Assembly: GCA_036392095.1 (NCBI GenBank)
Contig: DASVYQ010000110.1
Coordinates: 1-58,895, forward strand
DNA length: 58,895 nt
DNA from: Patescibacteria group bacterium
GTDB taxonomy: Bacteria; Patescibacteriota; Microgenomatia; Levybacterales; UBA12049
Direction: 5' to 3'
Shown here one piece after another: positions 18,951 through 43,004 of the stretch (its first letter is position 1; the number at the start of each line of letters is the position of its first letter). Position numbers and translations under genes: made by a program. Below the pieces are notes generated by a model. It saw only the letters and a program-made list of their open reading frames with translations. It did no database searches and was not told where the DNA came from.

Positions 18951-19029
18951 TACTCTGTGTCATTCTGGCTAGTCCAGAATCAAACCTGGAGTCCACGATT
19001 GTGGATTTACCAGGATGACACAAACAAAA

Positions 19030-19058: not shown

Positions 19059-19158
19059 AGGTGGAAAAAGTTGCTTTTGTGTATAAGAAACAGGAGAAAG
19101 ATAAGGGTAGAAGACAGTTTCTCTTGCTTGCTTGCTTCTTGTTTCGTACACTAAGAGT

Positions 19159-20505: not shown

Positions 20506-20515
20506 AATAAGGAGT

Positions 20516-24231: not shown

Positions 24232-24302
24232 AGGCAGGATTAATCTACTGTAACAACCAAAAAATATAATGTCAAGGATAAATTTAGAGAGAAAATACTA
24301 TA

Positions 24303-25028
24303 TTATTTTCCGGAGATCTTTCGTAAGATAAATCCAAGTGGAGTAATGCCTCCTAATACTTCCCAGATAATATCTGGTGTACCTGTTCCAGGCAATTTAG
24401 ATGCATTTGAAGGAGAATAAACTGCGCCCAATACTTGGCTGGCATTAATATTATTGTTGTTTGTGTTGTTATTGTTATTTGTATTGCTTGGATTATTGTT
24501 AATAACCGGGTTAAAGTTAATACTTTGATTTTGATATTGTAATTGCTGTTGGCAAACAACTACTGCAACACCGTTAAGATACACAGTAATTGGTGTGCAA
24601 TTAGTCATATCTGTTGTTGGAGTTGGTGTTGCAGTTGGTACATCGGTTGGACTAACAGTTCCTGTTGGTGTATCTGTTGGAGAATCAGTTGGTGTTATTG
24701 TATCTGTTGGTGTTGGTGAATTTGCTGGGCAATATTCTCCTATTGGAAAAGCAATCTCGCATGCTGGGTGATCGTAGGCACATAATGGCAATGGGATGCA
24801 AGTTGGTGAAGCAGTAGGATCTTCATCAGTTGGTGATGCTGTTGGAGAGGTAGTATCGGTTGGCGCAACAGTATCTGTCGGAACTATTGTATTGGTTGGA
24901 GATTGGGTATCTGTAGCAGTTGGATTATCTGCATTAGCATTTTTTACAGCACTTGGTTGTATTGCATTAATATACAATCCCATAACCACCAAAATGCCAA
25001 AAAATGCTATAGATCTATATAGTTTCAT
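24303..25028 (-). CDS. Thr/Pro-rich LPXTG-anchored surface protein
   Basis: It has a signal peptide, two PT(D/N)T-type low-complexity blocks flanking a 4-Cys core, and an Asn-rich tract. LPGTG (nt 24395-24381) is followed by a hydrophobic stretch and RKISGK. Confidence 0.75.
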   Translation of the reverse strand: MKLYRSIAFFGILVVMGLYINAIQPSAVKNANADNPTATDTQSPTNTIVPTDTVAPTDTTSPTASPTDEDPTASPTCIPLPLCAYDHPACEIAFPIGEYCPANSPTPTDTITPTDSPTDTPTGTVSPTDVPTATPTPTTDMTNCTPITVYLNGVAVVVCQQQLQYQNQSINFNPVINNNPSNTNNNNNTNNNNINASQVLGAVYSPSNASKLPGTGTPDIIWEVLGGITPLGFILRKISGK

Positions 25029-25111
25029 ACAGAAAGCTCATTATATATCGACCTATAATATTTGTCAACAACGTATATAAACATAGGTTTTTTCTATGTT
25101 AGAATTGCTTT

Positions 25112-26815
25112 ATGACCACAAAGAAACTTGTTGCACTTCTTATTGGCATAACTCTTTTTGCCTATGTTTCTTCTTTAAACAATCCTTTTATTTGGGATGA
25201 TGAGCAATTTATCCAAAAAAATGTTTATGTACAAAATTTTGATGTAGAAAAGATTTTTACTACAAATACCGTGGCGGGAGCTGGGCTTGAGAGCAATTAT
25301 TACCGTCCGCTGACATCATTAAGCTTTGCTATAGATACCAAACTGTGGGGACAAAATCCTTTTGGCTTTCATATAACAAATTTTCTGCTTCATGTAGGTG
25401 CGGGAATTATCTTATTTTTTGTATTACAACAACTTGGCCTTTCAAAGCTGTTTTCCTTTGCAGTAAGCAGTATATTTTTAGTTCATCCTATCCAGACAGA
25501 GGCTATAACCTATATTAACTCTCGTGGAGATTCGCAATATACCTTTTTCTTTTTTCTGTCTCTTTTAGTCTTTTTGCATGCAATATCTGCAAAGAAAAAG
25601 CGAGTACTATTATATATTCTTAGCATTGTATCCTACGTGCTAAGTATTTTTTCAAAAGAAACAGCTATGGCTGGATTTCTTGTATTTATAGGAATAATAG
25701 GTTTTCACTATGTGAAAACAAAAAAAATTGCTTTGGTCTCAATTCTAATGGCATCAGTGATAACAGTAATCTCAGTAGGGTATTTCTTGCTTCGATTAAC
25801 GCTGCTTAACTTTAATAACACGCTTAATTTTTATAACACTACAAACTTTTATTCAACACATCTTTTTGTCAGGCTATTTACGTTTACAAAAGTAGTATGG
25901 ATTTATATTGGTCTTCTGCTTTTCCCATATCCGTTGCATATGGAAAGGGAAGTAGGTTTGGTTACAAGCTTTATTTCCGGTTGGGTTGCTGCTTTTATCT
26001 TGCTTATTATTGGCTTAATCATTCTTATTATATGGGAAATAAAGAAATACAAAACAGCAGTTATTGGCTTGGGATTTCTTCTCTCAGCCAGTTTTCTTGT
26101 GCCTGTGTCAGGCATTATTCCTATTAATGGTATTTTGTATGAGCATTGGCTGTATATTCCTATGGTTGGTTTTTTTATTATTCTCTTTAGACTAATCCAA
26201 ATAGCTGCGGGGTTGGTTGGTAAAGCTGCAGCAACTAAGCTTGGAACACTTGGGATAATGTTACTTTGTTGCATTTGTGTTGTTTTGACAATAAGACAAA
26301 ACAACATTTGGTCAGACCCACTTACATTTTATACATATACGCTTGGTTTTGCCCCAAATTCTTCACGTCTTCACAATAATTTAGGTATGACGTATGCAGA
26401 TGCTGGGCACTTAGATGCTTCAATTGTTGAGTACAAAAAAGCCATTGCTTTGACTCCCGATCTGCCTCAAGTGTATAACAATTTGGGAATTTCCTATCAG
26501 AGAAAGGGAGATGTAAAAAATGCAGAAGTTGCCTTACAAAAATCCCTTTCCTTGGCACCGCATTTTGAGGCTGCACAAATTAATCTTATGGCTTTATATT
26601 TAAAAGAAGAGAAGTATGCAAAAGCTCTTCCGCTCTTACAAGCATTAGCTCCATATAGCCAGAATGATGTGAGATTTTTGTACACATATGGAAAAACACT
26701 TTGGAAGTTACAGCAATATGATGCAGCAGAAAAACAATTTGACAAGGCTGTTGCAGCTTCGGGCAATAATGCAGATGTTATAGCTCAAATCAATCAACTG
26801 AAAGCCTCAAGATAG
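25112..26815 (+). CDS. TMTC-like GT-C membrane glycosyltransferase with C-terminal TPR repeats
   Basis: It has FIWDDEQFIQKNVYVQN and VHPIQTEAITYINS motifs. TPRs include HNNLGMTYADAGHLDASIVEYKKAIALTPDLPQVYNNLGISYQRKGD. Confidence 0.75.
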   Translation: MTTKKLVALLIGITLFAYVSSLNNPFIWDDEQFIQKNVYVQNFDVEKIFTTNTVAGAGLESNYYRPLTSLSFAIDTKLWGQNPFGFHITNFLLHVGAGIILFFVLQQLGLSKLFSFAVSSIFLVHPIQTEAITYINSRGDSQYTFFFFLSLLVFLHAISAKKKRVLLYILSIVSYVLSIFSKETAMAGFLVFIGIIGFHYVKTKKIALVSILMASVITVISVGYFLLRLTLLNFNNTLNFYNTTNFYSTHLFVRLFTFTKVVWIYIGLLLFPYPLHMEREVGLVTSFISGWVAAFILLIIGLIILIIWEIKKYKTAVIGLGFLLSASFLVPVSGIIPINGILYEHWLYIPMVGFFIILFRLIQIAAGLVGKAAATKLGTLGIMLLCCICVVLTIRQNNIWSDPLTFYTYTLGFAPNSSRLHNNLGMTYADAGHLDASIVEYKKAIALTPDLPQVYNNLGISYQRKGDVKNAEVALQKSLSLAPHFEAAQINLMALYLKEEKYAKALPLLQALAPYSQNDVRFLYTYGKTLWKLQQYDAAEKQFDKAVAASGNNADVIAQINQLKASR

Positions 26816-26839: not shown

Positions 26840-29800
26840 TTAATTTACAATCAGCCAGTTAAACTGTGTGGCTGTCGCATTTGGCTGTGGAATGCCAACA
26901 GTAAAGCTGATTCCTGGAACTTGCCTCATTAAGACTGGAATCTGGCCAGTATCTCCAACAGGCGTAATGTAGATAAGTGATTTATCGGTAACCAATGGAT
27001 TATCTATGGTAATTTCTTTCTGATAAGAATTAATTTGGGTTGTTCCTGCAGAACCGGTTGCCTGTACTTCTGTATCAGAAACAGCATAGGCAGGTGGGGC
27101 AAGTTCTAGATTAAGTTTGGCAACAGTTGCAGTTCCGCTTGCAACAACATCTCCAAGTTGGTTAACTGCGAAAACAGCAGAACCGGTTGCATTGGTTACT
27201 TTGAATTGAGATGAAGGGTTTGGATTATTACTGTCTCCAAGTTGTACAGACAAGTCTTGGTTAGGAAGTGGAGAAAGAACTTTTACTGCTAGGGAACTAT
27301 TAAAGACTGCTTTTCCATTAACTGTTAAGTTTCCGTTTTGGTCAATTTTTACTTGTCCTGCTGCTATTGAAACGCCTCCTTGTGCCAAAGGCTGCAACTG
27401 TAAGTCTCCTCCTAAGACATTAATACTGTTATCAGAAAGAATAAATTGTGCACCAATAGAGAGTTGTCCTGTAATTGTTGTGTCAGATAGAGATGTTGGA
27501 CCAAGTGACATAAGTCCTTGAGCAAACGTTGCAGTGGTTGCTGACAGTTGTGGAACATATGCCAAATATGCTGAGAAGCTTGCTAAATTGGTATATCCGC
27601 CTGGCAGTGTCGGAGAATAACTGCTAGCGAGATTTTGTGCACTTGCAGTACCAGCATTTGCAATGTCAGAAGACGGAGTTGCGAAATAAATATTCGTGAC
27701 GTTTGTAATGTTTTGAGCAGATAATGTACCCACTGCTGCAGAAAGTCCATCTATTTCATTAGCCACGATTCTTCCGGCATGAAGAGTCCCGGAGACTGTT
27801 GCATCAGAATTTACTGCAAGATTTTCTGAATTTAGCGTTCCGCTGAATGTTGCGTTGCCGGAATTGTCAATTTGGGCAACAACTGCGCTGTTTGTTGTGG
27901 TGCCATTTCTTATAGAAAGTGTATTATCTTCAAAAGAAAGAGAAATATTCCCGGTGTTACTAAGCGGAGAAATTATGTTGGTATGTATGGTATCTATCTC
28001 GGCAAGCGGGGAGATAATGTGAGTGCTACTCACTAACCCGGCATTTTGCACAACAGTAATAATATAATCCTGTAGTGACTGTCCTGCGATAGTAATATTA
28101 TTGGTTGCAACAGCCAAAGAATTGGTTGCAATATGTTGTGCTTGTACAAACCCTGCTTGTAAGGATGCAATAAGTGCTTGACTGTATGTGTCTACATGAG
28201 TCACAACATTTCCAAGGTTATCTAAAATCTGATAGGCAGTTGCGCCAATTTGCTGGAGACTAAATTCATTAGTATTGGCAAGCTGCGAATTAGGGTTATA
28301 TTCTCCAGTTTGCATGTATACATAAATAAGCCCGCAAACAACGCCGGGTGGAGCATCAGACGGACAGACAATTTGCTGCCCCAAGTTATGCGCTGGGTCA
28401 AAGTCTTCTAACGCCGGACCAATAGTAACTCCATCTTGAGTTGCTTTCATACCAATTCCAGGAATACTACTTGAAGTAATTCTATCTCCTGAGTGGATTG
28501 GACCATTTATGGTCGATACTTTGGTTGGAACTTTTCCAATTTCTGCAACGGCTGGATGCAATGGTTCTGCTGTGTAGCCTCCTGCCATAAGTCCTACAGA
28601 ATTTCCTTCAATAGTAATAGCTGGATTAGTAGAAACAACACCTAGCAGCCCTTTGTCATAGGCAACGGCTGCTTTTTTAACTAATTTTCCTGTTGTGTCT
28701 ACGTTTGCAGAAGCTGAGGAATCATTATCTATGGTAATAATATCTCCTTTGTCTGTTGCAGATGATGCATGATAATACTCAGCCACGTCACCGCAGGTGT
28801 TAGAACCAATATTAAGACATGCTGCTCCTACCTGAAGAATCTTAGGATCGGCATTAAAACAGCTAATACAAACATGTTGGTTTTTCTGTACGTTAATGGT
28901 TGGTGGGGAGGTATGTCCGGTATCGGTAATATATAAATTACTGGTTGAGGTAACAAATGCTTCATAAGAAGATCCTGCGCTCCAGACAACTCCCGATGTT
29001 CCTCCAACAGTTACTTTGCCAGAAAAGCTTGCATTTCCAGCTGCAGATATCCAAGCATGTTCGGCGGCATTTGTTGTACCTTGAGAACATCCTCCGTTGG
29101 CACAAGAACCTCCCCAAATACTAAAGGTTTCTGAATCATCATTGTCATCTTGCAAATAGACACGCAAATCAAAAGTATTTGTTGCACAACCACCATTTTG
29201 TGTTGAACAAGCATAAATAAATCCGTTATCATTATCAGAAGATGGGAAGTTAATCATACCGTAGTCCCCGGAGATTGTCCCTGTACCAACAGTTAAGTCT
29301 CCATAGACATCTAACTTACTTCTAGGCGTTCCTGTTGTACCAATACCTACATTGTTTCCTTGGCTGTTAAGAAGCAATGGTTTACTGTTCCAGGTTTGCA
29401 TATAGCCAAAAGATGCATCAGAACCAAGAGTAATATCGCTTGCATTTGTGTTGCCTGCGGAAAAAGCGTATGTACTTGACGTGGCAGCGGTAAGAGTTCC
29501 TCCTTTAACAGTAAGAGGATTTGGTTCACTTGTAGTGCCAATACCTACATTCCCATTACCATCTAATCGTATACCACTTGTAGCATTCATCCATGGAGCA
29601 ATTACTAAGCCATTTGCAGTGCCAATTGATTGGCCGCCATAGATAATTTGATTGTCATTAGCAACAGTAATACTGTTAAAGGAACCTCCACCAACTGCAG
29701 CGCCTACCCAAACTTGTTGCGTTGTACTATTTATATGCATATAAGTTGCACCTGAATTATAAACTTCTAATTTTTGGTCAGGAGCTGTTGTTCCAACACC

Positions 29801-32800
29801 AACACTTCCGGCAACTGCCATAGCTGTAGTAAGAGCGTTAGGATCTAAGAAGTAATTCGTATTATCTAAATCATAAAAGCTTCTTGCTTGCAGTTGTCCA
29901 GAAGATTTAACAGTAAATTCTGTTTGACCAGAGTAAGAAGCTGTAATAATATCTCCATTTGTTCCAGCAAGATTGGGTTGATTAACCACTAATTCAGCAT
30001 TTCCAAGATTTGCTGTTGTGCCTATACCAACGTTGCCTGTTGGATCAACATATAAACGGCTTATACCACTGGTTGCAATATCATAGGTATTATTGTCTTG
30101 CTCAAATGGTCTGTCAGAAATTTCAGGCATAGAAACCTGCATTGTTCCACCGGTATTGTAGTTAACAATAATAAGCGGTTTAATGTACCGTGTTCCAACA
30201 GGGAAGGTTGTATTTGCTGTTCCTTCACCTTGGACCTTGCCATAGTACCAGGTTCCAGAGGCAGTTGGGTTTTGTGCGCTTGCAATAAAGTAGCCATAGG
30301 TACCGCCATTGCCATGTAAAACGTTTAGATTTTGGTCGTATGCAATATATCCTGCATAAAATGTACCAGTCCCAGATGTTCTTACCGCCCAAATACGGCC
30401 ATAATAGGTTCTTTGAGGATCAACTGGAATAAGTTGATCAATATAATACCAGCCCGCTAAAGAAGAATTAGTAAATTGATGCACAATGCCTGTTGGAACA
30501 GCACTGTTTGTAGCAACTGTTGTAATTGTTGCTGCTTGTCCGGTAATAAGTTTCCAGAAAGAAGTTGAATTGCTCCAACCATCTGCAGATAGTGGGATCA
30601 TGTTTGCTCCAGCTACGCCTCCAATTTGATCTCTCGTGTAGCCGGTTGATCGAATATCTCCGTTTACATCAAGTGTATATTGTGCGCTATTTGTAGCAAT
30701 ACCAACTTTTCCTGCAAAAATTGCACTACCAGTTGCATTAATAACTAGTCCTGCATTATATCCAGCAGGTGAGGGAACAACAGGAGATGATGTAGTTGCA
30801 ATATATACTCCTGGATAATTTCTTCTTTCAGCTTGTGCGCCCCATAGATAGTAGGTTGAGTTTAAAGACCATAGCTTTATTTGGAATCCTCGTGGAGAGC
30901 CTGATGCTGTAAGATTATTTGTTGAATAGGTATATCTTTTCCATGTGGTTGTAAGTGTAAATATATTGCCAGAATTAGAATCATTGGCTCCAAGTTGAAC
31001 CGATTCGCCACCAACAGCCCCTTTAAGCCAGATAGAAACGGTATATGGTCCGGAATTAGGGAATGATGTTATATTTTGAACATATCCTTGCGATGATCCA
31101 ACCGGCCAAGAGCTAGGTGTAATTGCTTGCGTTGCAGTATAGGTTCCATCTGGTGCAGCACTTTGTGTTGCATTGTCAGTTGTTGTTGGTAAACTCCAAT
31201 ACCCTGAATATGCAGATCCGCTAAATGCTCCTTGTGAATAAATCATAAGGTTTTCATAATTTCCAATTCCTCCAAATGGAGTATTTTGTCCGCCAATTTG
31301 TTCTATGCCTCCAGTTGCGGTTACTCTAAAAAGATTAGTAAATGTTGAATCATCAAATGCTGCTAAATCTGTTGTATTGCCATTAGCCAAACTTAAGGAG
31401 GTATTACCGGCAACTTCTAATTTTGCTATTGGACTTGCAATACCAATACCTACAGTACCGTTGGTAACAGGTGTTGAAGAAACTGTGTTTCCGTTATATA
31501 GTCCTGTACCATATATTAAGTTACCAATATTTAACTGTTGATTGCTTGTATTGGATGGCAAATCTACATTTTGGCCTAAGGCAATGTTATAATTTCCAGA
31601 GCTAAGATCATATCCTGCTTGATAACCTAAAAGAGTATTGGCTGTACCTCCAGTATTATAACCTGCTTTATAACCAAGCTGGGTTGAATTAGTGGGTAAA
31701 GAATTTGCCGCCCAACTTGTTTCATAACCGACAAATACATCATTAGAATAAGCTCCAGTCACATTTCCATAACCTGCTCCATAACCAACTGCTACTGAAT
31801 TTGCACCTGCTGTATTTATATTGAGGGCTAACGATCCAATAGCTGTATTATAACTTCCAGTTGTATTTCCATTTAAGGATTGTTGACCAATGGCAGTATT
31901 GTCTTGACCCGAAGTATTTAGGGTAAGTGCTGTAGCTCCTACTGCAGTATTATCAATCCCACTCGTATTAAGCTTTAATGCCTGATATCCTATTGCAGCA
32001 TTAAGTTGCCCAGAGGTGTTATTTTGAAGTGAGTAATTTCCAAGCCCAACATTATCATTACCTGTTGTAACAGATAATCCAGAATTGACACCAATAAATG
32101 AATTATTAAGTCCCGAGCCACCTGAGCGTAATTCTAAACCGGCTGTACCATCGCTATTTAAAAGTTTTGCAACAGGAGCTGAGTTACTTGTTAATTGTTT
32201 TACAGAAACACTGGTTATTGTTCCATACCAATTATTACTTGGCTGAAAAATTAATGAACCAGCTCCTGCAGCAGTAATTATTTCTGTATCTGTACCTGAT
32301 TGACTAGGTCCGTCTGCATAAGCGTTATTTGCAGCTGTTGACCCAAAGCTAAAAGTAATACTTCCCGATGAAGAAGCAGTTGATGTATAGGCAAATGAAA
32401 TCTGATAGGTATTACCCGAGGCAGGTGCTGCACTTAGTGCACTATTTGTAAGTGTTAAATTGTTTGCTCCAACAGTATCTTTTTGTGCAAATCCGTTCCC
32501 AATAATATGCCATGAAGTTGAGTCAGTCCAATTGCCGGTATTAGAAGAGAATGTCCGGTCAGCTGCATTGGTAATCATTTCAGCGCCTAAACCTGCTATT
32601 GAATTTGCATTCCCCTGAACAGTTAAATTTGCCGTCGGATTGGTTGTTCCGAGGCCAACATAACCGGTATTTGCAATGTAAAGTGCCGGTTTACTTGTTG
32701 TAATGCCTGCATTGCCTCCAACTGAGTTATAAAAACCAAGAGATCCGTTATTAAGCAGGTTAACCTGACTTGCGCTTCCTGTAAAAGTCAAATAGCCAGA

Positions 32801-35800
32801 GGTGGAGGCTGTACCTGCAGGAATACTGCCATTTGCCAGGCCAAATACTTGGAATGCACTTCCTGTACCCGTTCCGCCAACAGCTAGATCAAGTGCAGAC
32901 CATGTTGGGGAGAGAACTGATCCATTTAATTGCCAATATCCATCGGTTCCTCCTGTAATTGGTGTATGGATGTTTTTTACATATAAATTGTTCCATGCAT
33001 CGCCAGGTGCGCCAATATTTGCAGAGCCATCACTTCCGGGTAAGATATTGCCAGAGGTATCGATAGATGTTTTTACAGCTGTTGCACCTGTACTGTTAAC
33101 TAAAAGACCTGAATTTACCTGCAACTGTGTTGCAACACCTTGTAAAACTACACTGTTTGGTAGGGTAAAGGAGCCTCCGATAGTCAAGCTGCCTGCATTG
33201 GTAATAAAGTTGGTTCCGCTAAAGAATTGAATATTACCTCCGCTTGAGGTTGTGCCAAGAGTAACTGTGCCTGTTCCTGCATAAATAGCTAAAGGATTAT
33301 TACTAGTTGTTGTTAAAACAGGATTTGTGCCAGAGAAGGTGGTTGTTAAACTATTTATGAATAAGTTACTTCCTGTACCCCCATTAAGAGGTGAAAGTGT
33401 TATGTTTCCGGTTGTATTACCACCAATAGTTATATTATTATTTTGTGCTCCTTGAATTGTTCCATTCCCAATAAGAGAAAGAGCTCTGTTTGTTCCATCT
33501 TGTGCAGAAACAGATGCTGTTGGTGTGCCTCCTGAAATATTCAATACTGCAAATTTAGCTGATTGGGTTGCATTAGTTGTATCTGTTACTCCAACTAAAA
33601 CATCTAATGTATTATTAATAGGATATAAGGTTCCATTTGCAGAATTTAAGACCCAATTGGAACCTCCGGTTCCAGATCCGCAAGCACCCCAGGTTGGTGT
33701 ACCTCCGCCAGTTGATTGCAAACATTGATTTGTTCCGCCTGCAGTTGTTTGTGTAAATACACCATTTGAATCTGTAAAGAATATTCCGCCACCAGTTTTG
33801 TATTTGGTCGATGCTAATGTGCCGTCATTTTCAATAGTAAATCTGGTTGTTCCAGAAGAGGAAGCAGAGAATATGTCTCCACTCCCAGAAAGATTTTGTT
33901 GATTAACAACTAATGCTCCATTGCCATAGGTAGTTGTACCAATGGTTACTGTTCCATAAGGTTGCAACGTTACAAGGGTGCCAGAATCCCATGTATTGCC
34001 ATATGTGGTTTGTAATCTAATCCCATGGCTGCTAGCTCCTTGAAATATTGCATACTGTCCATCATATCCAATAAATGCTCTATTATTAGCGCTTATATAC
34101 GTTGTTGAATTTGTATTATCTCCCAAAAATACACTATTGCCTGTTTTAGCCACTTGAAGCGGTGCATTAGGAATTGCAGTTCCTACGCCAATATTGCCTG
34201 ATTGGGTTATTACGAATCGTGTTTGGCCAGAAGAAGAGGCAGTAATTAGATCTCCTAAGGTATTTGTAACAATAAAGCCAGCAAAGTTTGTGGTGGCAGC
34301 AACAGTTGCTGCAGGACCGTTAAGATCGCTTCCAAAGGCTTGGAAAGTGGCGGATGCTGTTCCATTTCCACCAACTGCTAAGTCATTGGCAACATTTGAT
34401 GGGGTAATAACATTGTTTGCCAATTGCCAGAAGCCTTCTGTTCCTCCTGCAACCGGCAAATAAATATTATTTGTATTAATCGCTACGCCATAAATATTTC
34501 TCCATCGCAAAGTAGAGGAGCCTAAGTCAAAAAGATTGTCGTTGTTTGGACCAACATGTCCTGCAACTTGTAATTTAAAACTGGAAGGATTTGTTGTTCC
34601 AATACCAACTGAGCCTGCAACAACCAAAGAATTCCCGACAGAATTAGGATCTAAGAAATATGCGGTATTATTAATATCATAAAAGCTTGCTGCTTGTACT
34701 TGTCCGGTGTTATCTACAGTGAATTTAGCAGTTCCAGAGACAGAAGCGCTAATGAGCGGACCTGTTGAATCCTGCTCTATAGTAAAGGCTGATTGACCAC
34801 TTGATGTAGCAAGGATTGAGGCAATAGAGTCGATTTCTACTGCTCCTAAGGCAGTACTTATATTTCCGGTAAATGATGTATTTTGTAATGGTCTGAATAC
34901 GTCTATTTTCCCGAGGCCGTCTGGATTTAATTGTATGTCTCCATTGCTTCCTGCATTGGTTGCAAGTATTGTCGTTTGACCGGTTAATTTAATATTGCTT
35001 GATGTTGCTTGAATGGTCGTTGTTGGATTAGTTGAACCTGGAATAGCCACAACTCCGGAGGAGTTAAGGGCTAGCACTGCATTTGCATTACTGACAACTG
35101 AAGCATCTGTAATGGGCGGCAAGCCTTGTAGGACTTCGGCATTCGTTGCATAGGCAACTGTTGCAATTTGTTGTCTGGGGGTTAATTCTGGTGTGCTTTC
35201 TACGGTTACTCCCATGTATAATCCACTATTTTGCGCAAAAAGACTTTGCGGGATTCCACAAGCTCCAGTTGCCGGACTGCTTGGAGGATTGCCGCTGTTG
35301 CAAAGGGTAGCATTGCCGCCGGTACCGTTACTTCCTAAAAGCAAAGAAAAAATTCCGTCTGTATCTGGACTTACTCTATCGACCTCTTCCCATAAACGGG
35401 CACCAGCTGAGGCTGTCGGATCGTTGTAGATAACAAATCTTAAGTTGGTTGCAGTGGTAATAGGGTTACCGTTATTGTCAGTCAGTCTTCCTTGAAAAGA
35501 TAAAATTCGCAAAGGCGCCACTGGGGCAGCTGCCAAAACAGGTGATTTAGCACCTCGGCTTCCAATAAGAGCATAGTAAGCAGTAAATCCAATAACTGTT
35601 GAAAGAACAATTAAGACAGCCAAATTAAAATATCTGGCTAATGCTAGAGTATGATATCTTCTATACCATTCTGGTCTAGTAAATCTTACATGAAACCATA
35701 CTTTTTGAAACCAAGTAAAGTTTTTGGTAGACATTTTGGTTGGAGCATATAATTCTTTTGGTAAATTAGTAACCCGAGATGGCTTTTTTATAACAAAGCG

Positions 35801-36730
35801 TGATAATTTTCTGTCAAAAACAGGTTTGCCTCGTAATTCCCAGATTCGATTTGAGGCCAAATTTATCAGAGAGAACAGCCAAGTGACAATAATTTTTTCA
35901 ATCAAGAAATCTAGTCCTGACAGGCTTTTTTGAAGTAATCGAATTGGAGGAAATGGAGAATAGCTTGGTGCAGCTTGCTCTTCTTTAACCCTTGGTTTCT
36001 CAGTTACTATAACAGGTGTTTCCTTAGATAAAATAGCCTCAATTGTGCTCTGAGAAAGGGTTGTTACTTCTGGTTTTTTCACAAAACTAATATGTGCTTT
36101 AGAATCAGTAATGATTCCTTGTTCTTTTGCCCATGAAAGATATTTGCGTAAAGAAGAAAGTTTTCTGTTGATTGAGCTTGCAGAGAAGATGTTTTGACTA
36201 TACAAACGATCTCTGTATGTCTCTAACAGCTTATTAGAAACACTGTTTAATATTTCTTGATCAGTTACGTCTTGTCCGTTTTCATTTTTTGCAACTTCTT
36301 TTGCCCAGGCAAAAAATTGTTTTACATCAATGATATAGTTTTTTATAGTTAGAGCAGAAGCGTTATAGACATACAAAAAGTTTTTAAAAGCTTTTAGCCT
36401 AAAAGGATCTGCTTCTTCAATTGTTTCTTTCGGAGTGTCAGAAAAAGGATCATGTGAAATAATTCCTTCGATTTTTAAGAAGTGAAAAAACTTACGAAGC
36501 GAAGAAACGTAGCGCTCAATAGAACTGATTGCTGTTTCTGAAGCAAAAGCATCTTTAAACTGTTGGATTGTCTCATAAGAGACTTCTTGTGCTTTAAATT
36601 CTTGGTTAAATGTGTTCTGAAACCAAGAAATAAATTTTCTAATATCTGCCAAATAATTTTTCACAGTTAATTGTGACGGAGAATTTTGTTGAGAAAGTAA
36701 ATATTTTTTAAAAAGATCTAGTAAATACAT
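26840..36730 (-). CDS. Giant (~3,300 aa) single-pass membrane / surface fibre protein
   Basis: The reading frame is uninterrupted. The longest ORF starts at a TTG at 36847. I prefer the ATG at 36730 (MYLLDLFKKYLL...) because two TATAAT hexamers (36787-36782 and 36778-36773) lie inside the extension. Residue numbers below count from 36847. The layout is two Phage_int_SAM-like domains (aa 40-250), a TM helix (aa ~404-429), then Gly/Thr/Asn/Ser-rich tail-fibre-like repeats. Confidence 0.9.
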   Translation of the reverse strand: MYLLDLFKKYLLSQQNSPSQLTVKNYLADIRKFISWFQNTFNQEFKAQEVSYETIQQFKDAFASETAISSIERYVSSLRKFFHFLKIEGIISHDPFSDTPKETIEEADPFRLKAFKNFLYVYNASALTIKNYIIDVKQFFAWAKEVAKNENGQDVTDQEILNSVSNKLLETYRDRLYSQNIFSASSINRKLSSLRKYLSWAKEQGIITDSKAHISFVKKPEVTTLSQSTIEAILSKETPVIVTEKPRVKEEQAAPSYSPFPPIRLLQKSLSGLDFLIEKIIVTWLFSLINLASNRIWELRGKPVFDRKLSRFVIKKPSRVTNLPKELYAPTKMSTKNFTWFQKVWFHVRFTRPEWYRRYHTLALARYFNLAVLIVLSTVIGFTAYYALIGSRGAKSPVLAAAPVAPLRILSFQGRLTDNNGNPITTATNLRFVIYNDPTASAGARLWEEVDRVSPDTDGIFSLLLGSNGTGGNATLCNSGNPPSSPATGACGIPQSLFAQNSGLYMGVTVESTPELTPRQQIATVAYATNAEVLQGLPPITDASVVSNANAVLALNSSGVVAIPGSTNPTTTIQATSSNIKLTGQTTILATNAGSNGDIQLNPDGLGKIDVFRPLQNTSFTGNISTALGAVEIDSIASILATSSGQSAFTIEQDSTGPLISASVSGTAKFTVDNTGQVQAASFYDINNTAYFLDPNSVGNSLVVAGSVGIGTTNPSSFKLQVAGHVGPNNDNLFDLGSSTLRWRNIYGVAINTNNIYLPVAGGTEGFWQLANNVITPSNVANDLAVGGNGTASATFQAFGSDLNGPAATVAATTNFAGFIVTNTLGDLITASSSGQTRFVITQSGNIGVGTAIPNAPLQVAKTGNSVFLGDNTNSTTYISANNRAFIGYDGQYAIFQGASSHGIRLQTTYGNTWDSGTLVTLQPYGTVTIGTTTYGNGALVVNQQNLSGSGDIFSASSSGTTRFTIENDGTLASTKYKTGGGIFFTDSNGVFTQTTAGGTNQCLQSTGGGTPTWGACGSGTGGSNWVLNSANGTLYPINNTLDVLVGVTDTTNATQSAKFAVLNISGGTPTASVSAQDGTNRALSLIGNGTIQGAQNNNITIGGNTTGNITLSPLNGGTGSNLFINSLTTTFSGTNPVLTTTSNNPLAIYAGTGTVTLGTTSSGGNIQFFSGTNFITNAGSLTIGGSFTLPNSVVLQGVATQLQVNSGLLVNSTGATAVKTSIDTSGNILPGSDGSANIGAPGDAWNNLYVKNIHTPITGGTDGYWQLNGSVLSPTWSALDLAVGGTGTGSAFQVFGLANGSIPAGTASTSGYLTFTGSASQVNLLNNGSLGFYNSVGGNAGITTSKPALYIANTGYVGLGTTNPTANLTVQGNANSIAGLGAEMITNAADRTFSSNTGNWTDSTSWHIIGNGFAQKDTVGANNLTLTNSALSAAPASGNTYQISFAYTSTASSSGSITFSFGSTAANNAYADGPSQSGTDTEIITAAGAGSLIFQPSNNWYGTITSVSVKQLTSNSAPVAKLLNSDGTAGLELRSGGSGLNNSFIGVNSGLSVTTGNDNVGLGNYSLQNNTSGQLNAAIGYQALKLNTSGIDNTAVGATALTLNTSGQDNTAIGQQSLNGNTTGSYNTAIGSLALNINTAGANSVAVGYGAGYGNVTGAYSNDVFVGYETSWAANSLPTNSTQLGYKAGYNTGGTANTLLGYQAGYDLSSGNYNIALGQNVDLPSNTSNQQLNIGNLIYGTGLYNGNTVSSTPVTNGTVGIGIASPIAKLEVAGNTSLSLANGNTTDLAAFDDSTFTNLFRVTATGGIEQIGGQNTPFGGIGNYENLMIYSQGAFSGSAYSGYWSLPTTTDNATQSAAPDGTYTATQAITPSSWPVGSSQGYVQNITSFPNSGPYTVSIWLKGAVGGESVQLGANDSNSGNIFTLTTTWKRYTYSTNNLTASGSPRGFQIKLWSLNSTYYLWGAQAERRNYPGVYIATTSSPVVPSPAGYNAGLVINATGSAIFAGKVGIATNSAQYTLDVNGDIRSTGYTRDQIGGVAGANMIPLSADGWSNSTSFWKLITGQAATITTVATNSAVPTGIVHQFTNSSLAGWYYIDQLIPVDPQRTYYGRIWAVRTSGTGTFYAGYIAYDQNLNVLHGNGGTYGYFIASAQNPTASGTWYYGKVQGEGTANTTFPVGTRYIKPLIIVNYNTGGTMQVSMPEISDRPFEQDNNTYDIATSGISRLYVDPTGNVGIGTTANLGNAELVVNQPNLAGTNGDIITASYSGQTEFTVKSSGQLQARSFYDLDNTNYFLDPNALTTAMAVAGSVGVGTTAPDQKLEVYNSGATYMHINSTTQQVWVGAAVGGGSFNSITVANDNQIIYGGQSIGTANGLVIAPWMNATSGIRLDGNGNVGIGTTSEPNPLTVKGGTLTAATSSTYAFSAGNTNASDITLGSDASFGYMQTWNSKPLLLNSQGNNVGIGTTGTPRSKLDVYGDLTVGTGTISGDYGMINFPSSDNDNGFIYACSTQNGGCATNTFDLRVYLQDDNDDSETFSIWGGSCANGGCSQGTTNAAEHAWISAAGNASFSGKVTVGGTSGVVWSAGSSYEAFVTSTSNLYITDTGHTSPPTINVQKNQHVCISCFNADPKILQVGAACLNIGSNTCGDVAEYYHASSATDKGDIITIDNDSSASANVDTTGKLVKKAAVAYDKGLLGVVSTNPAITIEGNSVGLMAGGYTAEPLHPAVAEIGKVPTKVSTINGPIHSGDRITSSSIPGIGMKATQDGVTIGPALEDFDPAHNLGQQIVCPSDAPPGVVCGLIYVYMQTGEYNPNSQLANTNEFSLQQIGATAYQILDNLGNVVTHVDTYSQALIASLQAGFVQAQHIATNSLAVATNNITIAGQSLQDYIITVVQNAGLVSSTHIISPLAEIDTIHTNIISPLSNTGNISLSFEDNTLSIRNGTTTNSAVVAQIDNSGNATFSGTLNSENLAVNSDATVSGTLHAGRIVANEIDGLSAAVGTLSAQNITNVTNIYFATPSSDIANAGTASAQNLASSYSPTLPGGYTNLASFSAYLAYVPQLSATTATFAQGLMSLGPTSLSDTTITGQLSIGAQFILSDNSINVLGGDLQLQPLAQGGVSIAAGQVKIDQNGNLTVNGKAVFNSSLAVKVLSPLPNQDLSVQLGDSNNPNPSSQFKVTNATGSAVFAVNQLGDVVASGTATVAKLNLELAPPAYAVSDTEVQATGSAGTTQINSYQKEITIDNPLVTDKSLIYITPVGDTGQIPVLMRQVPGISFTVGIPQPNATATQFNWLIVN

Positions 36731-37378
36731 AGGGCAGTGTGAAAATTGTGAAAATAAGTAGCTAGCTTCAAAATTATACAGATTATACGTTTTATCATGA
36801 AACCTACTACTATTAATAAGCGTAGAAAGTATACACCTAGTTGTCAAGAACCTAGAGTGAAAACAGATTCAAAATAATTGAATGCAGATTTATATATTTT
36901 GATACGGTTGTGAAAAGGGAGGGACAGGCATTAAATCTTGTAAAAAGTGTAAAAAAATTAGAATAGGTAATTCGGGAATTCGATAAATGTTATACTTTTA
37001 CAATATCTAAATATATCATTGAATATCAAATATAAAGAAAATTTAAATGATAGGGAATGATATAGTTATTTTACTCTTTTTGCTAAATTGTAAAGTTGTT
37101 CTTGTTTTATTCGATTTTTTCTTAAGAAAAATTAATTATGAACACTGTTTTTTAAACTAATTTTAATTGCTTATTGGGTCTAAAAAATAATATGAGATAG
37201 TAATTAGCAAAAGAAGAAAGACAGTGACAAAAAATGGCACTAGTAGTTTTGGCCTATTCGTATTATCTAAAATTAATGCTAAGAGAGAAAAGTGGATTAA
37301 GAAAGAATAGTGAAGGAATTTACTATTGAATTATTGTACTTTGGCTTCTTTCTCTATACAATAAGAGTAACCTAATCT

Positions 37379-38254
37379 ATGAAAAATAACAAGCTGCCCC
37401 TTGTTAACCTATTTATTGCTATTTTGTTCGCATTTTTAACTGCGGTGCCAGCATATGCAAGTAGCACTGGCAATGCTTCCTCAGATGTAAGCGCAACTGT
37501 TGGTCAATATTACTTAGATGTTTCCGGATATATTGCCCCTTTTGCATCAATTGTGCTTCTCTCTAATGATCAGCCTCTTCGAACAACAGTCGCAGATTCT
37601 CAAGGATATTTTTCTTTGTCTCAAGTATTGGTTAGTAAAGGGTTTTCTGGATTTTGTTTAGATGCAGTGGATGTAAAGAGGCTAGGAGAGTCCTACAAGT
37701 GTTTTACATTTGCGCCTTTAACCAACAGCCTTTCTATGAAGAATTTGTTTTTACCGCCAACCTTGGGGCTTCAAAGAACCGAAATTACCCAGGGTGACCA
37801 AGCTGTTATCTGGGGATACAGCATGCCTAATGCTACCGTGGTCGTTCACTTAAGCAATGGACAAACATTTACAACTACTGCAGATAACACAGGATATTAT
37901 GAAGTAAAAACAACCATAGCGAAGGCTGGTCAATATGAATTGTATGCCGATGCTACATTCCAGAATAAAAAGTCTCTTATTCCGGACAGAAAAGTCACAC
38001 TTTTAGCACTCTCAACAAGCGAGCAAATAGCAAAAGCAGGATTAAATTGGCTTACCAATCTAATCAATTTCTTGCTTGGCAGCCCATGGGGAATAGTGCT
38101 AGCTATTTTACCTATTTTTATCCTTATTCTTATACTTATTTACAAGCTCAAGCCCGAATGGTTTACGGTTATTGACCAAAAATTTCACCAAGTAGCCTCG
38201 CATATTCCATTTTTCCCTCATAGGTTGCACCATTGGTGGTTTGTAGGGTATTGA
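37379..38254 (+). CDS. Secreted protein with two Ig-like / carboxypeptidase-regulatory-like domains and a C-terminal TM anchor
   Basis: It has a signal peptide (AILFAFLTAVPAYA). Two repeats are VSGYIAPFASIVLLSNDQPLRTTVADSQGYFSL and IWGYSMPNATVVVHLSNGQTFTTTADNTGYYEV. The TM helix is GIVLAILPIFILILILIY. Confidence 0.6.
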   Translation: MKNNKLPLVNLFIAILFAFLTAVPAYASSTGNASSDVSATVGQYYLDVSGYIAPFASIVLLSNDQPLRTTVADSQGYFSLSQVLVSKGFSGFCLDAVDVKRLGESYKCFTFAPLTNSLSMKNLFLPPTLGLQRTEITQGDQAVIWGYSMPNATVVVHLSNGQTFTTTADNTGYYEVKTTIAKAGQYELYADATFQNKKSLIPDRKVTLLALSTSEQIAKAGLNWLTNLINFLLGSPWGIVLAILPIFILILILIYKLKPEWFTVIDQKFHQVASHIPFFPHRLHHWWFVGY

Positions 38255-38780
38255 TTTATTTTTTAAAGCGGAAAATAGATATCTTACTCAATCTTCTAAA
38301 TAAAAAAATCGTATCTAAAATCAGAAGTAAATAATTAAGGTTGAAGATAGCTAGCATCATAATTGTGAATATGTATTCGATGTGCATAGATCATTAACAT
38401 TATGGCTTCGCCAAATTGTAACTGTTAAAAATGAAATTCCACACGAAACAAGAATAAAAATAATAGAAAAAAGTGTCTTCATGTTTTTATGAAGAATAAA
38501 AGTAATTATTATTAGCCTTAAAAGACTTGTAGTAAATAAAAAAGGACGTAGTAAAATTTTTTGTGGACAACTCTAAAATTATAGGGGATAACTTTATAGT
38601 CTTATAATATTTTCACGCCTAAAAACAATATTTCACACCTTAAGAGGCAACAACAATTTGTTTTTCTTGATACTCGGGAATGTTGTTTACCGAATGTATG
38701 TAATGGGGAAATTAGGTAAAAGTACAATAATAGCCTTGAAAGAAATATATTGTGAAATCTGTGAAAATAGTCAAAAATTG

Positions 38781-38801
38781 TAAGCGTCTAGAATGCCCTA
38801 G
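38781..38801. repeat. 21-bp repeat, inverted copy of 48117-48137
   Basis: TAAGCGTCTAGAATGCCCTAG is the exact reverse complement of CTAGGGCATTCTAGACGCTTA at 48117-48137. It contains the TAG stop codon of the 38798-39766 gene. Confidence 0.9.
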
Positions 38802-39766
38802 AACGCGTTTTCATGAGGATCAAGGGAAGATAGGTCATCTTCATGTTTGTTTTTTCTCCTTCTATATAATAGGAATGCCAGAACGATTGCTATGAGTACT
38901 AATGCAATAACAGTTGCGGCTCTCCATGGAAATACCCAGAAAACAAGTGTTGCGCTAAGTGGTAAATTGCCTCCTGTGCCATAACTTCCTAAAAGTGTTG
39001 CCGTAAAACGGCCTATCATAAGCTTTGTCCCGAGCGTATTTATATAATCACGTGCAATGCCTCCTGGAAAAATATTCCCCTGAGGCAATTCAGCAGTTGC
39101 AACAACTCTTCCAAGCATGTCTTTTACTGTAATTGTTGCTTGGGGAGTAATATGCAAATCCCCAAAATTTTTAATTTCGGTTTGTATTTTAATAGGGCCA
39201 TATTCAGAAAAATTAGGTGCGGTAAATTTGGTTACTTTGGCAGATTCATTAATGGTTCCTTTTATGTCAATATAGACAAGTGTAGCTATCTGTGTTTGGA
39301 TTTTTGCTCCAACTGATGGCTGACCAGATTGATTAACCGGTTGATAGATAAGTGCTGCATAATGGCCACCGGCTCCGGCATCTTGTGGAACTTGAATGTA
39401 GTAATTAAAGTCAAATCGTTGGTGTCTCTTTACGGTAAATTCTTCAGGGTACACGGCAATCCAGTTAGCTGCACTGTATTTGTTATTTAGTATGGTGTTT
39501 CGTGGCAAAACTTGAGGTGTTCCATTATTGTCAGTAACAATAAAGTCATAGACTCCTGTTATAAAGGTCATATCGGTATCTGAATCATTAATAATTCCGA
39601 GTCTTCCTTCTGTTTTGTCTCCAGGGTTAAGCGTAACTTCAATCTTGGGTGGGGTTATAGTAACTTGTTGTAACTCTTGTGCATTTGTTTGAGAAACAAA
39701 CAAAAGTATGGCAAGTCCCATGGCTATAATTGATATTGTTTCTCCAATTATTTTTATAATTTTCAT
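38798..39766 (-). CDS. Signal-peptide, C-terminally TM-anchored surface protein (DUF916/DUF3324-like layout), paralog B
   Basis: I prefer the ATG at 39766 (MKIIKIIG...), 1 nt after the upstream stop (TAA-T-ATG). Motifs are QQVTITPPKIEV, IINDSDTD, GGHYAALIY, GPIKIQTEIKN and VKDMLGR. The TM helix is followed by a basic YRRRKNK tail. Confidence 0.6.
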   Translation of the reverse strand: MKIIKIIGETISIIAMGLAILLFVSQTNAQELQQVTITPPKIEVTLNPGDKTEGRLGIINDSDTDMTFITGVYDFIVTDNNGTPQVLPRNTILNNKYSAANWIAVYPEEFTVKRHQRFDFNYYIQVPQDAGAGGHYAALIYQPVNQSGQPSVGAKIQTQIATLVYIDIKGTINESAKVTKFTAPNFSEYGPIKIQTEIKNFGDLHITPQATITVKDMLGRVVATAELPQGNIFPGGIARDYINTLGTKLMIGRFTATLLGSYGTGGNLPLSATLVFWVFPWRAATVIALVLIAIVLAFLLYRRRKNKHEDDLSSLDPHENAF

Positions 39767-39767
39767 A

Positions 39768-41207: not shown

Positions 41208-41275
41208 ATATTATTATATGGAGAAAATAAGACTATCTGTCAAGTATATATGTGATAATAAAAATTAAAAATTTA

Positions 41276-42256
41276 TTAAATTTTTTTGTTTTCGCGGATT
41301 TTTCGTTTTATATGATAGAAAATAGCGGCTCCAATAAGACACAGCAAGATTAGTATAATAAAAAAACTAATAGGAAATGCAACAAAATATATCGTTTTAG
41401 TAAAAAGTGGACCAGTACTTGATAGAGCTACTGTTAGCGTTGCAGAATAGAGTCCAAAAACAAATGTTTCTGGCCAAATAGCTTTTTCTAAAGATCCAGA
41501 TTTATTATCTGGTAAAAACCGATTTGTGTTTGCCAATATATTTACAGGTAAAAGTTGTATATGACCAACAGCTTGTCCAAACATATTTTTTACAACAATG
41601 TCGCCTTTAGGTACAATGAAAAAATTGCTTGTATTTTGTACGCTTGTGGTAAATGCAATTGGGCCATGTGTTGTAAACCATGGGGTAGAGAACTCGTTTA
41701 ACAATCCTGTTGTATTGCCTTTTGGTCCAATAGAAAGCAGCACATTTATACCAATGCCCGCTGTCGTTGAGGCTGTTGTCGCATTTGCTAAATTTTGTCC
41801 ATGTGAAAGGAAAAGAATGGTAAAGTAATAATCCGAAGGAGGTTCATCTGAAGGAATACCAATATGCAGTAATAAGTTCTTTTGTTGCTGGGGAGCAAGC
41901 GTTAGCTTTGTTATAACACTTGAGCCATCATAAATCTGCATTTTTGAAAAAATATCTGGATCTGCTCCGGGCATTTGTTGACCATCTGGTAAAAAAGATA
42001 CTTCACCATTTCCTTTTTCAGATGAAGTAAATGGTTTAAGCACAATATCTAAATCAATTGGAGCATCACTGCTGTTAACGATGGTAAATGGAGCCTTGAC
42101 ACTTGCGGGAGCATCGGTATTAATTTGTAAAATTGGCGGATATACCTCTAATGATACTTGCTGTGCGAAAGCAGGACGTATAAAAAATGGGATAATCATT
42201 GGTACGCCAAGCAAAACAATCAAATTTTTTATAATAAAAATTTTCATAGTTCTCAT
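41276..42256 (-). CDS. Signal-peptide, C-terminally TM-anchored surface protein (DUF916/DUF3324-like layout), paralog A
   Basis: Motifs are QQVSLEVYPPILQI, IVNSSDAPID, PPSDYYFTILF, GPIAFTTSVQN and VKNMFGQ. The TM helix is followed by an HIKRKIRENKKI tail. Confidence 0.6.
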   Translation of the reverse strand: MRTMKIFIIKNLIVLLGVPMIIPFFIRPAFAQQVSLEVYPPILQINTDAPASVKAPFTIVNSSDAPIDLDIVLKPFTSSEKGNGEVSFLPDGQQMPGADPDIFSKMQIYDGSSVITKLTLAPQQQKNLLLHIGIPSDEPPSDYYFTILFLSHGQNLANATTASTTAGIGINVLLSIGPKGNTTGLLNEFSTPWFTTHGPIAFTTSVQNTSNFFIVPKGDIVVKNMFGQAVGHIQLLPVNILANTNRFLPDNKSGSLEKAIWPETFVFGLYSATLTVALSSTGPLFTKTIYFVAFPISFFIILILLCLIGAAIFYHIKRKIRENKKI

Positions 42257-42259
42257 ATA

Positions 42260-43003: not shown

Positions 43004-43004
43004 A

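Follow-up and report, generated by a model that had tools for sequence, protein, structure and literature searches.

A giant, predicted membrane-anchored tail-fiber-like protein with a putative internal autoproteolytic chaperone at a syntenic chromosomal locus of Levybacteria

We analyzed the complete 58,895-bp contig DASVYQ010000110.1 of a metagenome-assembled genome (MAG) labeled "Patescibacteria group bacterium" (i.e., the window), which carries a 10-kb gene that an earlier note on this DNA had described as encoding a giant surface fiber. The gene is indeed a single uninterrupted open reading frame (ORF; 26840..36847, minus strand), comprising 3,335 codons from a TTG with zero internal stops. 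The ATG at 36730 (aa 40), which is the sole alternative start codon within the first 60 codons, is the likely start of the fiber gene; from this ATG, the whole coding sequence (26840..36730) encodes 3,296 aa plus a stop, and the frame is open upstream to the TTG at 36847. The NCBI record for the protein (HEX8965598.1; 3,296 aa) also starts at ATG 36730 and is named "site-specific integrase." Residues are numbered here from the TTG (subtracting 39 gives the ATG numbering), and all of the fiber gene features described below lie on the minus strand. On the basis of profile matches and structural models, the product is very probably an N-terminally anchored fiber of the tail-fiber/mosaic adhesive trimer (MAT) class that carries an autoproteolytic chaperone.

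The G+C content of the gene is uniform from end to end (i.e., ~0.40), while that of its surroundings is lower (i.e., ~0.33 to 0.36). DNA repeat finders detected no tandem repeats and no direct repeats of >38 nt within the gene (just ~30-nt motif matches), indicating that its repetition exists at the level of protein motifs and does not reflect an assembly collapse. Self-BLAST of the protein revealed no long internal protein repeats, and a comparison of the whole protein with PDB sequences returned no match. A 142-aa antisense ORF inside the gene (32802-33230, plus strand) is most likely spurious. A search with aa 40 to 700 recovered 59 proteins; nearly all of them belong to Levybacteria or other Patescibacteria, carry the name "site-specific integrase, partial," and are truncated by contig ends. 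Further homology searches were performed by subregion of the protein, and a profile scan of one genome per species yielded at least 189 loci, the best 80 of which were read. Almost all of these 80 loci belong to MAGs of Levybacteria or other Patescibacteria, and their traced reading frames are uninterrupted ORFs of 1,380 aa to >3,800 aa. They include 33 complete orthologues (1,380 to 3,784 aa), while ten loci of >3,750 aa lie at the edge of the fetched DNA and the remaining loci run off contig ends. Given this length range, the window protein is not an outlier in its family.

The N-terminal part of the protein carries two SAM-like/core-binding domains, both predicted to be cytoplasmic (aa 43 to 128, 36464..36721; aa 151 to 242, 36122..36397). 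Pfam Phage_int_SAM_1 matched both stretches (whole-protein E, 5.3e-18); the second domain was also recognized by NCBIfam and is conserved in the family alignment, and PHROGs likewise matched the integrase-like head. The NCBIfam XerC/XerD models aligned over their first ~100 of ~295 positions and scored 65 to 67 bits against cut-offs of 330 to 335. The recombinase catalytic domain (i.e., the R-H-R-Y active site) was not found in the fiber protein with Pfam or NCBIfam. Since the core-binding domains occur without a catalytic domain, recombination is not expected, the database name "site-specific integrase" is wrong, and a true integrase is ruled out. Dozens of database fragments of this fiber are annotated as "site-specific integrase, partial." The head, which had no match among PDB sequences, is conserved in the family (median identity to orthologues, 45%), with invariant K-N-Y...D...W and R..SS.R signatures in both copies, and one family member (P0077) appears to be without SAM domains.

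Just two hydropathy peaks occur in the whole protein, a strong one at aa 400 to 430 (Kyte-Doolittle values up to 2.13) and a borderline one at aa 312 to 333 (1.6). The former corresponds to a predicted transmembrane signal-anchor helix (aa 404 to 429; 35561..35638), which was delimited by hydropathy and homologue comparison. It is preceded by a basic juxtamembrane stretch (aa 345 to 403; 35639..35815; 14 K+R and 3 D+E) with a conserved TRPxWY motif, and this basic charge marks that side of the membrane as the cytoplasm. A single hydrophobic segment ahead of the ectodomain was found in 13 of the 16 scorable homologues; together with the charge bias, this makes a single-pass, N-in/C-out topology the family consensus, in agreement with the earlier view of a single-pass giant protein with ~2,900 residues outside the cell. 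The hydrophobicity of the weaker segment (aa 312 to 333; 35849..35914) is not conserved across the family, with a counterpart in 3 of the 16 scorable homologues (quite strong in P0019), and this helix could be a membrane-associated or re-entrant segment. The ~2,900 residues that follow the anchor helix consist of 54% G/T/S/A/N. The 14 ectodomain cysteines (within 28790-35300) form seven close pairs spaced 2 to 13 residues apart (i.e., 516/530, 1042/1056, 2547/2554, 2582/2587, 2660/2663, 2677/2685, and 2828/2838), while residues 40 to 440 contain no cysteine, a pattern that fits an extracytoplasmic location of the ectodomain. The pairing suggests local disulfide staples. The pair 2677/2685 ends one residue ahead of the cleavage site predicted below.

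The ectodomain begins with a membrane-proximal beta-sandwich (aa 445 to 565; 35153..35515) that contains ILSFQGRL (aa 448), LWEE, and GIFSLLLG motifs and was modeled with high confidence by AlphaFold2 (AF2; predicted local distance difference test [pLDDT], 84 to 96). This base domain also directly follows classical signal peptides in many other, unrelated fiber proteins, which bears out the suggestion that its motif is typical of such proteins. It had no significant PDB neighbor; the Foldseek search with the N-terminal ectodomain model returned generic beta-sandwiches (E, ≥0.01). A family-conserved proximal fiber follows (aa 566 to 900; 34148..35152), with capping loops at aa 745 and 884, FYDINNTAYFLDPN at aa 722, and the first of two units of the form G-S-x-x-x-W-x-N-[IL]-Y...GGTxG[FY]WQL...DLAVGG. 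As previously noted, this unit occurs twice, namely, at aa 776 to 827 (W-x-N-I-Y/GGTEGFWQL/DLAVGG) and, as located by motif search, at aa 1279 to 1325 (32873..33013; W-x-N-L-Y/GGTDGYWQL/DLAVGG).

The most frequent element of the stalk is a short core, G-x-[VI]-G-[IVL]-G-T, which occurs nine times (aa 745, 884, 1395, 1797, 2046, 2271, 2347, 2432, and 2497). Beyond the two proximal copies, motif and profile located this capping loop at aa 1395 to 1412 (32612..32665) and at 31406-31459, 30659-30712, 29984-30037, 29756-29809, 29501-29554, and 29306-29359. A module repeated at least six times had been proposed, and all six of the examples quoted for it are present; however, the full composite with F-Y-D-x-x-N-T-x-Y-F-L-D-P-N is found only twice (aa 722 and 2324). 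When a 44-column profile of eight copies (all but the one at aa 2046) was searched against the whole PDB, exactly five sequences were matched, and all of them are Bdellovibrio MAT fiber fragments (i.e., Bd2133 8ond, 8oml, 8ol4, 8ojn, and 8on4; E, 5e-17 [8ond] to 2e-5). The MATs are mosaic adhesive trimer fibers of Bdellovibrio bacteriovorus (e.g., Bd2133 and Bd3182; Caulton et al. 2024, PMC10769870), in whose structures intertwined trimeric beta-helices are capped by loops of this motif (PMC10769870). The nine window copies agree with the capping-loop pattern of such fibers, V-G-x-G/N-small-x-x-P-x-x-x-L.

Several other modules interrupt or extend this stalk. The insert JR1 (aa 1411 to 1548; 32204..32617; ~140 aa) is a presumed jelly roll with five relatives found. 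It is followed by an array with a period of 17 residues (aa 1591 to 1790; 31478..32077; x-x-N-T-[ST]-G-x-x-N-T-A-[IV]-G-x-x-[AS]-L), which has >3,500 relatives. Most of these are Bacteroidota "tail fiber domain-containing" proteins, and many have Peptidase_S74. This array is the sole part of the protein that matched cultured-phage genomes, the matched genes there bearing the annotation tail fiber, tailspike, or endosialidase. The repeat pattern does resemble that of YadA heads, as had been proposed, but its period is 17 rather than 14, Pfam YadA_head had no match in the window protein (whole protein, E ≤ 1; 420-aa tiles, E ≤ 5), and the 17-residue-repeat profile had no meaningful match in the PDB and none to a solved head structure. 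A trimeric autotransporter is ruled out by the wrong repeat period and the lack of a barrel anchor.

An exhaustive search with aa 1850 to 2690 recovered 2,711 relatives, each matching a single module. Within this region, the insert JR2 (aa 1870 to 2030; 30758..31240; W-G-A-Q motif) is a predicted phage-type carbohydrate-binding-like jelly roll, the profile of which matched the RcGTA head spike fiber (6tb9; E, 2.3e-7) and xylanase carbohydrate-binding modules (CBMs; 3jxs and 1k42; E, 2e-3 to 6e-3) in the PDB. JR2 relatives also occur as appendages of a GH5 cellulase and of a pectate-lyase-like beta-helix, and one relative has a subthreshold CBM_4_9 match. The beta-rich insert JR3 (aa 2080 to 2255; 30083..30610) has 37 relatives among the retrieved proteins, and its profile had no match in the PDB; the label "lectin-like" given to such modules is thus partly supported, with relatives among solved structures for JR2 and none for JR3. 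A Cys-rich module (aa 2530 to 2686; 28790..29260) lies ahead of the predicted cleavage site and would form the tip of the mature fiber. A Peptidase_S74 domain directly follows the same module in the relative P0220, which makes the module a typical prechaperone tip.

The next region (aa 2687 to 2855; 28283..28789) is predicted from profile, AF2, Foldseek, and conservation data to be an intramolecular chaperone/autoprotease of the phi29 gp12 (Peptidase G2) type. Pfam Peptidase_G2 (PF11962) did not match the window protein itself. The 868-aa part of an orthologue, which is 34% identical to the last 650 residues of the window protein (E, 8e-77), passes this Pfam model (E, 9.7e-10; 38.7 bits versus a cut-off of 25). 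A chaperone-region profile from eight family members matched a tailspike "chaperone domain D4" (28nb; E, 4.7e-6) and the C-terminal fragment of phi29 gp12 (3gqh; E, 7.6e-5) in the PDB. The 3gqh chain starts with DFAEYFE, and its residue 1 aligns with D2687 in the C-G-D-V-A-E-Y-Y motif of the window protein. In gp12, this Asp follows the autocleavage site, and the Glu three residues on is catalytic. The window protein is accordingly predicted to be cut at G2686|D2687, with D2687 and E2690 as the predicted catalytic residues; all 27 G2-type sequences (i.e., the window protein and 26 orthologues) have D, A, and E at these positions without exception. In the AF2 model of the last 696 residues, the chaperone domain has a pLDDT of ~80 to 95 and the last ~87 residues are also confidently modeled, and the best PDB matches of the chaperone domain in Foldseek are 3gqh_A and the premature gp12 3suc (probability, 1.00). 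Taken with the matches to MAT structures and phage tail fiber genes, these results support the proposal that the ectodomain is built from modules of the phage tail fiber type.

Some orthologues and homologues carry at the same position an unrelated chaperone-protease, Peptidase_S74, with its Ser...Lys pair kept; the G2 type was recognized in 25 of the 33 complete orthologues and the S74 type in 3. That one conserved position is occupied by either of two nonhomologous self-cleaving trimerization chaperones is strong, albeit indirect, evidence that the fiber protein would assemble as a trimer and that cleavage at this position matters. Downstream of the chaperone, a fiber-like region (aa 2856 to 3248; 27104..28282), which is conserved in the family and of low confidence in the monomer AF2 model, leads to a conserved terminal beta-sandwich (aa 3249 to 3335; 26843..27103; pLDDT, ~67 to 91) that ends in FNWLIVN-COOH. 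The latter showed weak Foldseek similarity to the C-terminal domains of tailspikes and pyocin fibers and to an H-type lectin. Every one of the 33 complete orthologues ends in [F/L/V/I]-N-[W/F]-x-x-x-N, and all but one of them (32) have a match to the terminal module at the hidden Markov model (HMM) threshold used.

A module census of the 80 loci with local HMMs detected the head, base, chaperone, postchaperone, and C-terminal modules in nearly every complete orthologue; a small number of long and divergent proteins fell below the thresholds used. Together with this family-wide architecture, the tandem core-binding head, the internal chaperone, and the conserved C-terminal module were missing from the earlier note. 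Median identity to the orthologues was 55% for the base, 52% for the proximal fiber, 47% for the C terminus, and 36% for the chaperone. The number of capping-loop copies ranges from 0 to 16 across the orthologues and that of the W-N-Y units from 0 to 10. JR1, the 17-residue array, JR2, JR3, and the Cys-rich tip were found in the window protein only among the 80 loci, and these variable modules have hundreds to thousands of relatives elsewhere. Comparison of the orthologues for module variation thus showed that both ends are kept in the 33 complete proteins while the middle varies, and conserved ends with a mosaic middle are the pattern of receptor-binding proteins.

The genes upstream of the fiber gene, including that for leucyl-tRNA synthetase (LeuRS), are syntenic in 30 to 62 of the 80 loci, and a gene for a TPR protein lies downstream in 23 of the 80. 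This synteny with housekeeping genes indicates a core chromosomal locus and not a prophage. In a 1.14-Mb Levybacteria chromosome (OY970292.1), the reading frame of a short orthologue is broken into two overlapping ORFs (677 and 868 aa; loci L001 and L075, 10001-14627 and 1712-6494), the longer of which is the above-mentioned part that passes Pfam Peptidase_G2. The break could stem from a frameshift or a sequencing error, or the gene could be a pseudogene. A 649-aa ORF with a Peptidase_G2 match and a 928-aa ORF lie just upstream of this split orthologue and suggest a paralogous fiber. Many contigs that carry the fiber gene and its syntenic neighbors (e.g., L006, L008, and L010) are titled "uncultured Gammaproteobacteria bacterium" (third-party annotation [TPA] assemblies), and others are titled Eisenbacteria or Sulfotelmatobacter; these taxonomic titles look wrong.

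Downstream of the fiber gene, positions 10450-26815 (both strands) encode approximately nine paralogous-looking membrane proteins of 460 to 680 aa, several with PMT_2 (GT-C) and/or C-terminal TPR domains, one YfhO-like, and several without any Pfam match. The fiber gene was said to adjoin a glycosylation island, and this array of GT-C/PMT_2 and TPR glycosyltransferase-like membrane proteins does lie beside it; a homologue of the gene at 22198-24231 follows the fiber gene in 23 other genomes. GT-C enzymes act on the outer face of the membrane, and the neighboring GT-C/TPR enzymes may glycosylate the Ser/Thr-rich fiber. On the other side, positions 37379-43640 contain six small or medium-sized genes that are syntenic with the 5' end of the fiber gene in 30 to 62 of the 80 Levybacteria loci. 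These genes, i.e., one for a small Ig/CarboxypepD_reg-like protein (divergent from the fiber gene) and five for hypothetical proteins without a significant Pfam family, may be functional partners of the fiber. Genes for a ComEA-like protein (SLBB plus HHH_3) and ComEC (Competence) lie at 47459-49403 (plus strand), ~10 kb upstream of the fiber gene, with LeuRS and an unannotated 408-aa ORF in between. ComEA and ComEC constitute a DNA uptake pair typical of genomes of the candidate phyla radiation (CPR). No phage structural genes were found near the fiber gene within the window. The window further contains adjacent tRNA-Ala genes (CGC and GGC anticodons; 10210-10395, plus strand) and a divergent tRNA-Pro/tRNA-Arg pair (57749-57943).

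Starting from the architecture, homologies, family conservation, and synteny observed here, we propose the following model, in which trimer formation, cleavage, surface display, adhesion, and glycosylation are the inferred steps. The N-terminal ~360 residues, with their two core-binding domains and no catalytic domain, would stay in the cytoplasm, while the helix at aa 404 to 429 would act as an uncleaved signal-anchor and ~2,900 residues would be exported. Outside the cell, three chains would be registered from the C-terminal side by the G2-type chaperone, which, judging from its invariant catalytic residues, would then cut itself off at G2686|D2687. The product would be an N-terminally anchored, presumably homotrimeric ectodomain of ~2,250 residues, with a stalk made of the beta-sandwich base, nine MAT-type beta-helix/capping-loop modules, the 17-residue array, three globular inserts (at least one of a carbohydrate-binding type), and the Cys-rich tip. 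Scaled from Bd2133 (370 residues, about 142 to 150 Å; PMC10769870) at ~0.4 Å per residue, such a fiber might be several tens of nm and up to about 90 nm long. Given that the ends are conserved and the middle is swapped or resized between species, the likeliest role would be specific binding of partner glycans or proteins. By analogy with characterized relatives and from the variation pattern, we regard specific adhesion to a partner cell or surface as slightly favored over other functions. The combination of this function with the fiber structure is, in our assessment, reasonably probable.

Several points weigh against this model. Across the 2,900 ectodomain residues of the window protein, Pfam, PHROGs, and NCBIfam gave no significant match (including Pfam on ten 420-aa ectodomain tiles and a nonsignificant PHROGs tail fiber match; E, 0.086), and the ectodomain assignments draw on family profiles, orthologues, and structure prediction. 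Confidence was low over most of both AF2 models (mean pLDDT, 58 and 63). These are monomer models, and low pLDDT values in fiber regions are expected for obligate trimers. For the chaperone fold, the Foldseek match is of borderline significance (E, 1.2e-3; template modeling [TM] score on the target, 0.56), and the low-TM matches of the protein to extended phage fibers among viral models are weak and nondecisive. Five of the 33 complete orthologues had neither chaperone type at the sensitivity used. Moreover, ~480 conserved residues follow the chaperone, which is the last domain in phage proteins; the loss of this best-conserved distal region upon cleavage would have no explanation in the adhesion model. 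The model also leaves the cytoplasmic DNA-binding-type domains unaccounted for, and we know of no host of Levybacteria.

The same data can be read differently with respect to function. The fiber may be mainly a structural or protective element of the envelope (i.e., a coat, a spacer, or a phage decoy), the variable middle of which reflects escape from phages or grazers. Such a role would suit a single, syntenic, and apparently vertical locus with conserved ends in nearly all of the Levybacteria sampled, as well as the fact that about half of the complete orthologues (~1,400 aa) have almost no variable modules, and the GT-C/TPR array suggests heavy surface glycosylation. We nevertheless consider it unlikely, because the nearest characterized relatives are adhesins or receptor-binding proteins (i.e., MAT, phage fibers and tailspikes, and the gene transfer agent [GTA] spike), the CBM-type inserts and the wholesale swapping of modules are typical of receptor-binding proteins, and Pfam searches of the whole protein and tiles revealed no lattice-forming or cell-wall-binding domain. 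A polymorphic toxin is ruled out, since the C terminus is conserved rather than variable and there is no toxin domain. The cytoplasmic head invites another explanation, in which the protein links the inside of the cell with the outside, either by relaying contact to the head or by holding DNA at the membrane, and acts as a sensor, a tethered DNA-binding factor, or a DNA-handling helper. The SAM-like domains are as conserved (median, 45%) as the ectodomain base and C terminus. The recombinase core-binding domain binds DNA (XerC/XerD family), as would suit this link, and the ComEA and ComEC genes are ~10 kb away, albeit separated from the fiber gene by unrelated genes. A precedent is MyRF, which combines a DNA-binding domain, a membrane span, and a self-cleaving phage-type chaperone (PMC10769870); unlike in MyRF, however, the chaperone of the fiber protein would lie on the outer side, so that its cleavage cannot release the cytoplasmic head. 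DNA binding by the present copies is putative, no solved structure was matched by their sequences, and at least one family member, the above-mentioned P0077, appears to lack the SAM domains. This explanation is therefore improbable, and a similarly doubtful status applies to a two-sided machine in which distal contact is coupled to gene regulation or DNA handling and the 649-residue C-terminal piece is a second functional product. If true, the latter would be a bacterial surface organelle without a described counterpart.

Two further explanations question the nature of the gene itself. One is that it is a remnant of a prophage or mobile element, with an integrase fused to or beside a tail fiber gene, as the NCBI name, the integrase N-terminal domains, and the phage-type fiber and chaperone modules might imply. 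The missing catalytic domain, the membrane anchor between the head and fiber parts, the lack of phage structural genes nearby, and the LeuRS synteny kept in dozens of species make this very improbable. The other is that the ORF is an assembly chimera or a collapsed repeat; most database homologues are indeed "partial," with contigs that break within the gene. Yet the DNA lacks long or tandem repeats, its G+C content is uniform, and 33 independently assembled orthologues, some of them longer, share the N- and C-terminal modules in one frame, which renders an artifact of this kind barely conceivable.

If the anchored-fiber model is right, the locus bears on how these organisms interact with their surroundings. 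CPR bacteria (Patescibacteria) account for a large share of bacterial diversity, and the prevailing view is that most of them live attached to other cells; in the case of Microgenomates (e.g., Levybacteria), we are aware of neither hosts nor an attachment apparatus. The fiber is the strongest candidate to date for the means by which these cells make contact with other cells or surfaces. Its locus, syntenic across the lineage, joins conserved ends for anchoring and assembly to a middle in which modules are swapped from species to species, as is the hallmark of receptor-binding proteins, and it would extend the class of cellular tail-fiber-like adhesins, so far known mainly from predators (e.g., Bdellovibrio), to ultrasmall bacteria. 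In practical terms, it provides a protein to seek in proteomes and tomograms, binding modules to screen against glycans and hosts, and a variable region usable as a host range marker, while the hundreds of database entries that are pieces of such fibers misnamed "site-specific integrase" matter for mobile-element counts in CPR genomes. Cellular tail-fiber-like adhesins as such are already known (i.e., the MAT family, described in 2024, and many "tail fiber domain-containing" proteins). What is new here is that the protein brings its own membrane anchor along with a head of tandem integrase core-binding domains, that its chaperone is internal and followed by a conserved C-terminal module, and that the family is syntenic across the lineage and reaches lengths of >3,800 aa. 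Very large surface proteins have been remarked upon in Patescibacteria (PMC13059738), and our literature search for this architecture in CPR bacteria found no description of this fiber family.

Known systems resemble different parts of the protein. XerC and XerD share the N-terminal SAM-like core-binding domain, which is present in two copies in the window protein, where their catalytic domain is absent. MyRF similarly joins a DNA-binding-type domain, a membrane span, and a phage-type ICA/S74 chaperone in one polypeptide, but there the chaperone shares its side of the membrane with the DNA-binding domain, which it sets free, whereas that of the window protein would be on the opposite, outer side (PMC10769870). 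The YadA family has a comparable repetitive N-[ST]-x-A-[IV]-G pattern in an elongated adhesin-like protein, and one distant relative (P0136) just passes Pfam YadA_head; the period is 14 in YadA versus 17 here, and the window protein has an N-terminal anchor in place of a C-terminal beta-barrel, for which its cell has no outer membrane. The S74 "tail fiber domain-containing" proteins of phages and Bacteroidota have the 17-residue N-T-A-[IV]-G array in common with the window protein and S74 in common with some of its orthologues, but they are shorter (typically 0.9 to 1.5 k aa), secreted or virion borne, and without a cytoplasmic head or a conserved C-terminal module. The predicted chaperone corresponds most closely to that of the phi29 preneck appendage gp12 (3gqh and 3suc), which is its best fold match in Foldseek and the released fragment of which begins where the window protein has D-x-A-E-Y; an orthologue also passes Pfam Peptidase G2. 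While gp12 is a virion protein with the chaperone last, the window protein is a cellular membrane protein, the predicted chaperone of which starts 649 residues from the C terminus.

The closest overall comparison is with the MAT fibers. These proteins have ~1,000 aa, a cleaved signal peptide, and attachment to the cell via a separate partner, while the window protein has 3,296 aa and its own membrane helix, as well as an extra ~360-aa cytoplasmic head of two core-binding domains. In the window family, the chaperone is of the G2 type (with few S74), is internal, and is followed by a conserved ~480-aa module. The host of the window protein belongs to the monoderm-type CPR, and Patescibacteria are absent from the list of MAT-bearing lineages in the MAT paper (PMC10769870). 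The ~120- to 130-aa beta-rich domain that follows the MAT export signal resembles the base domain of the window protein in position and description, and the MAT N-terminal domain is reported to have no PDB neighbor (PMC10769870), as is the case for the base domain. Both are cell-encoded, tail-fiber-like surface fibers (as predicted for the window protein) with a repeated capping-loop module and mosaic, exchangeable distal modules, and a self-cleaving chaperone occurs in many MAT members (PMC10769870), as is predicted for the window family.

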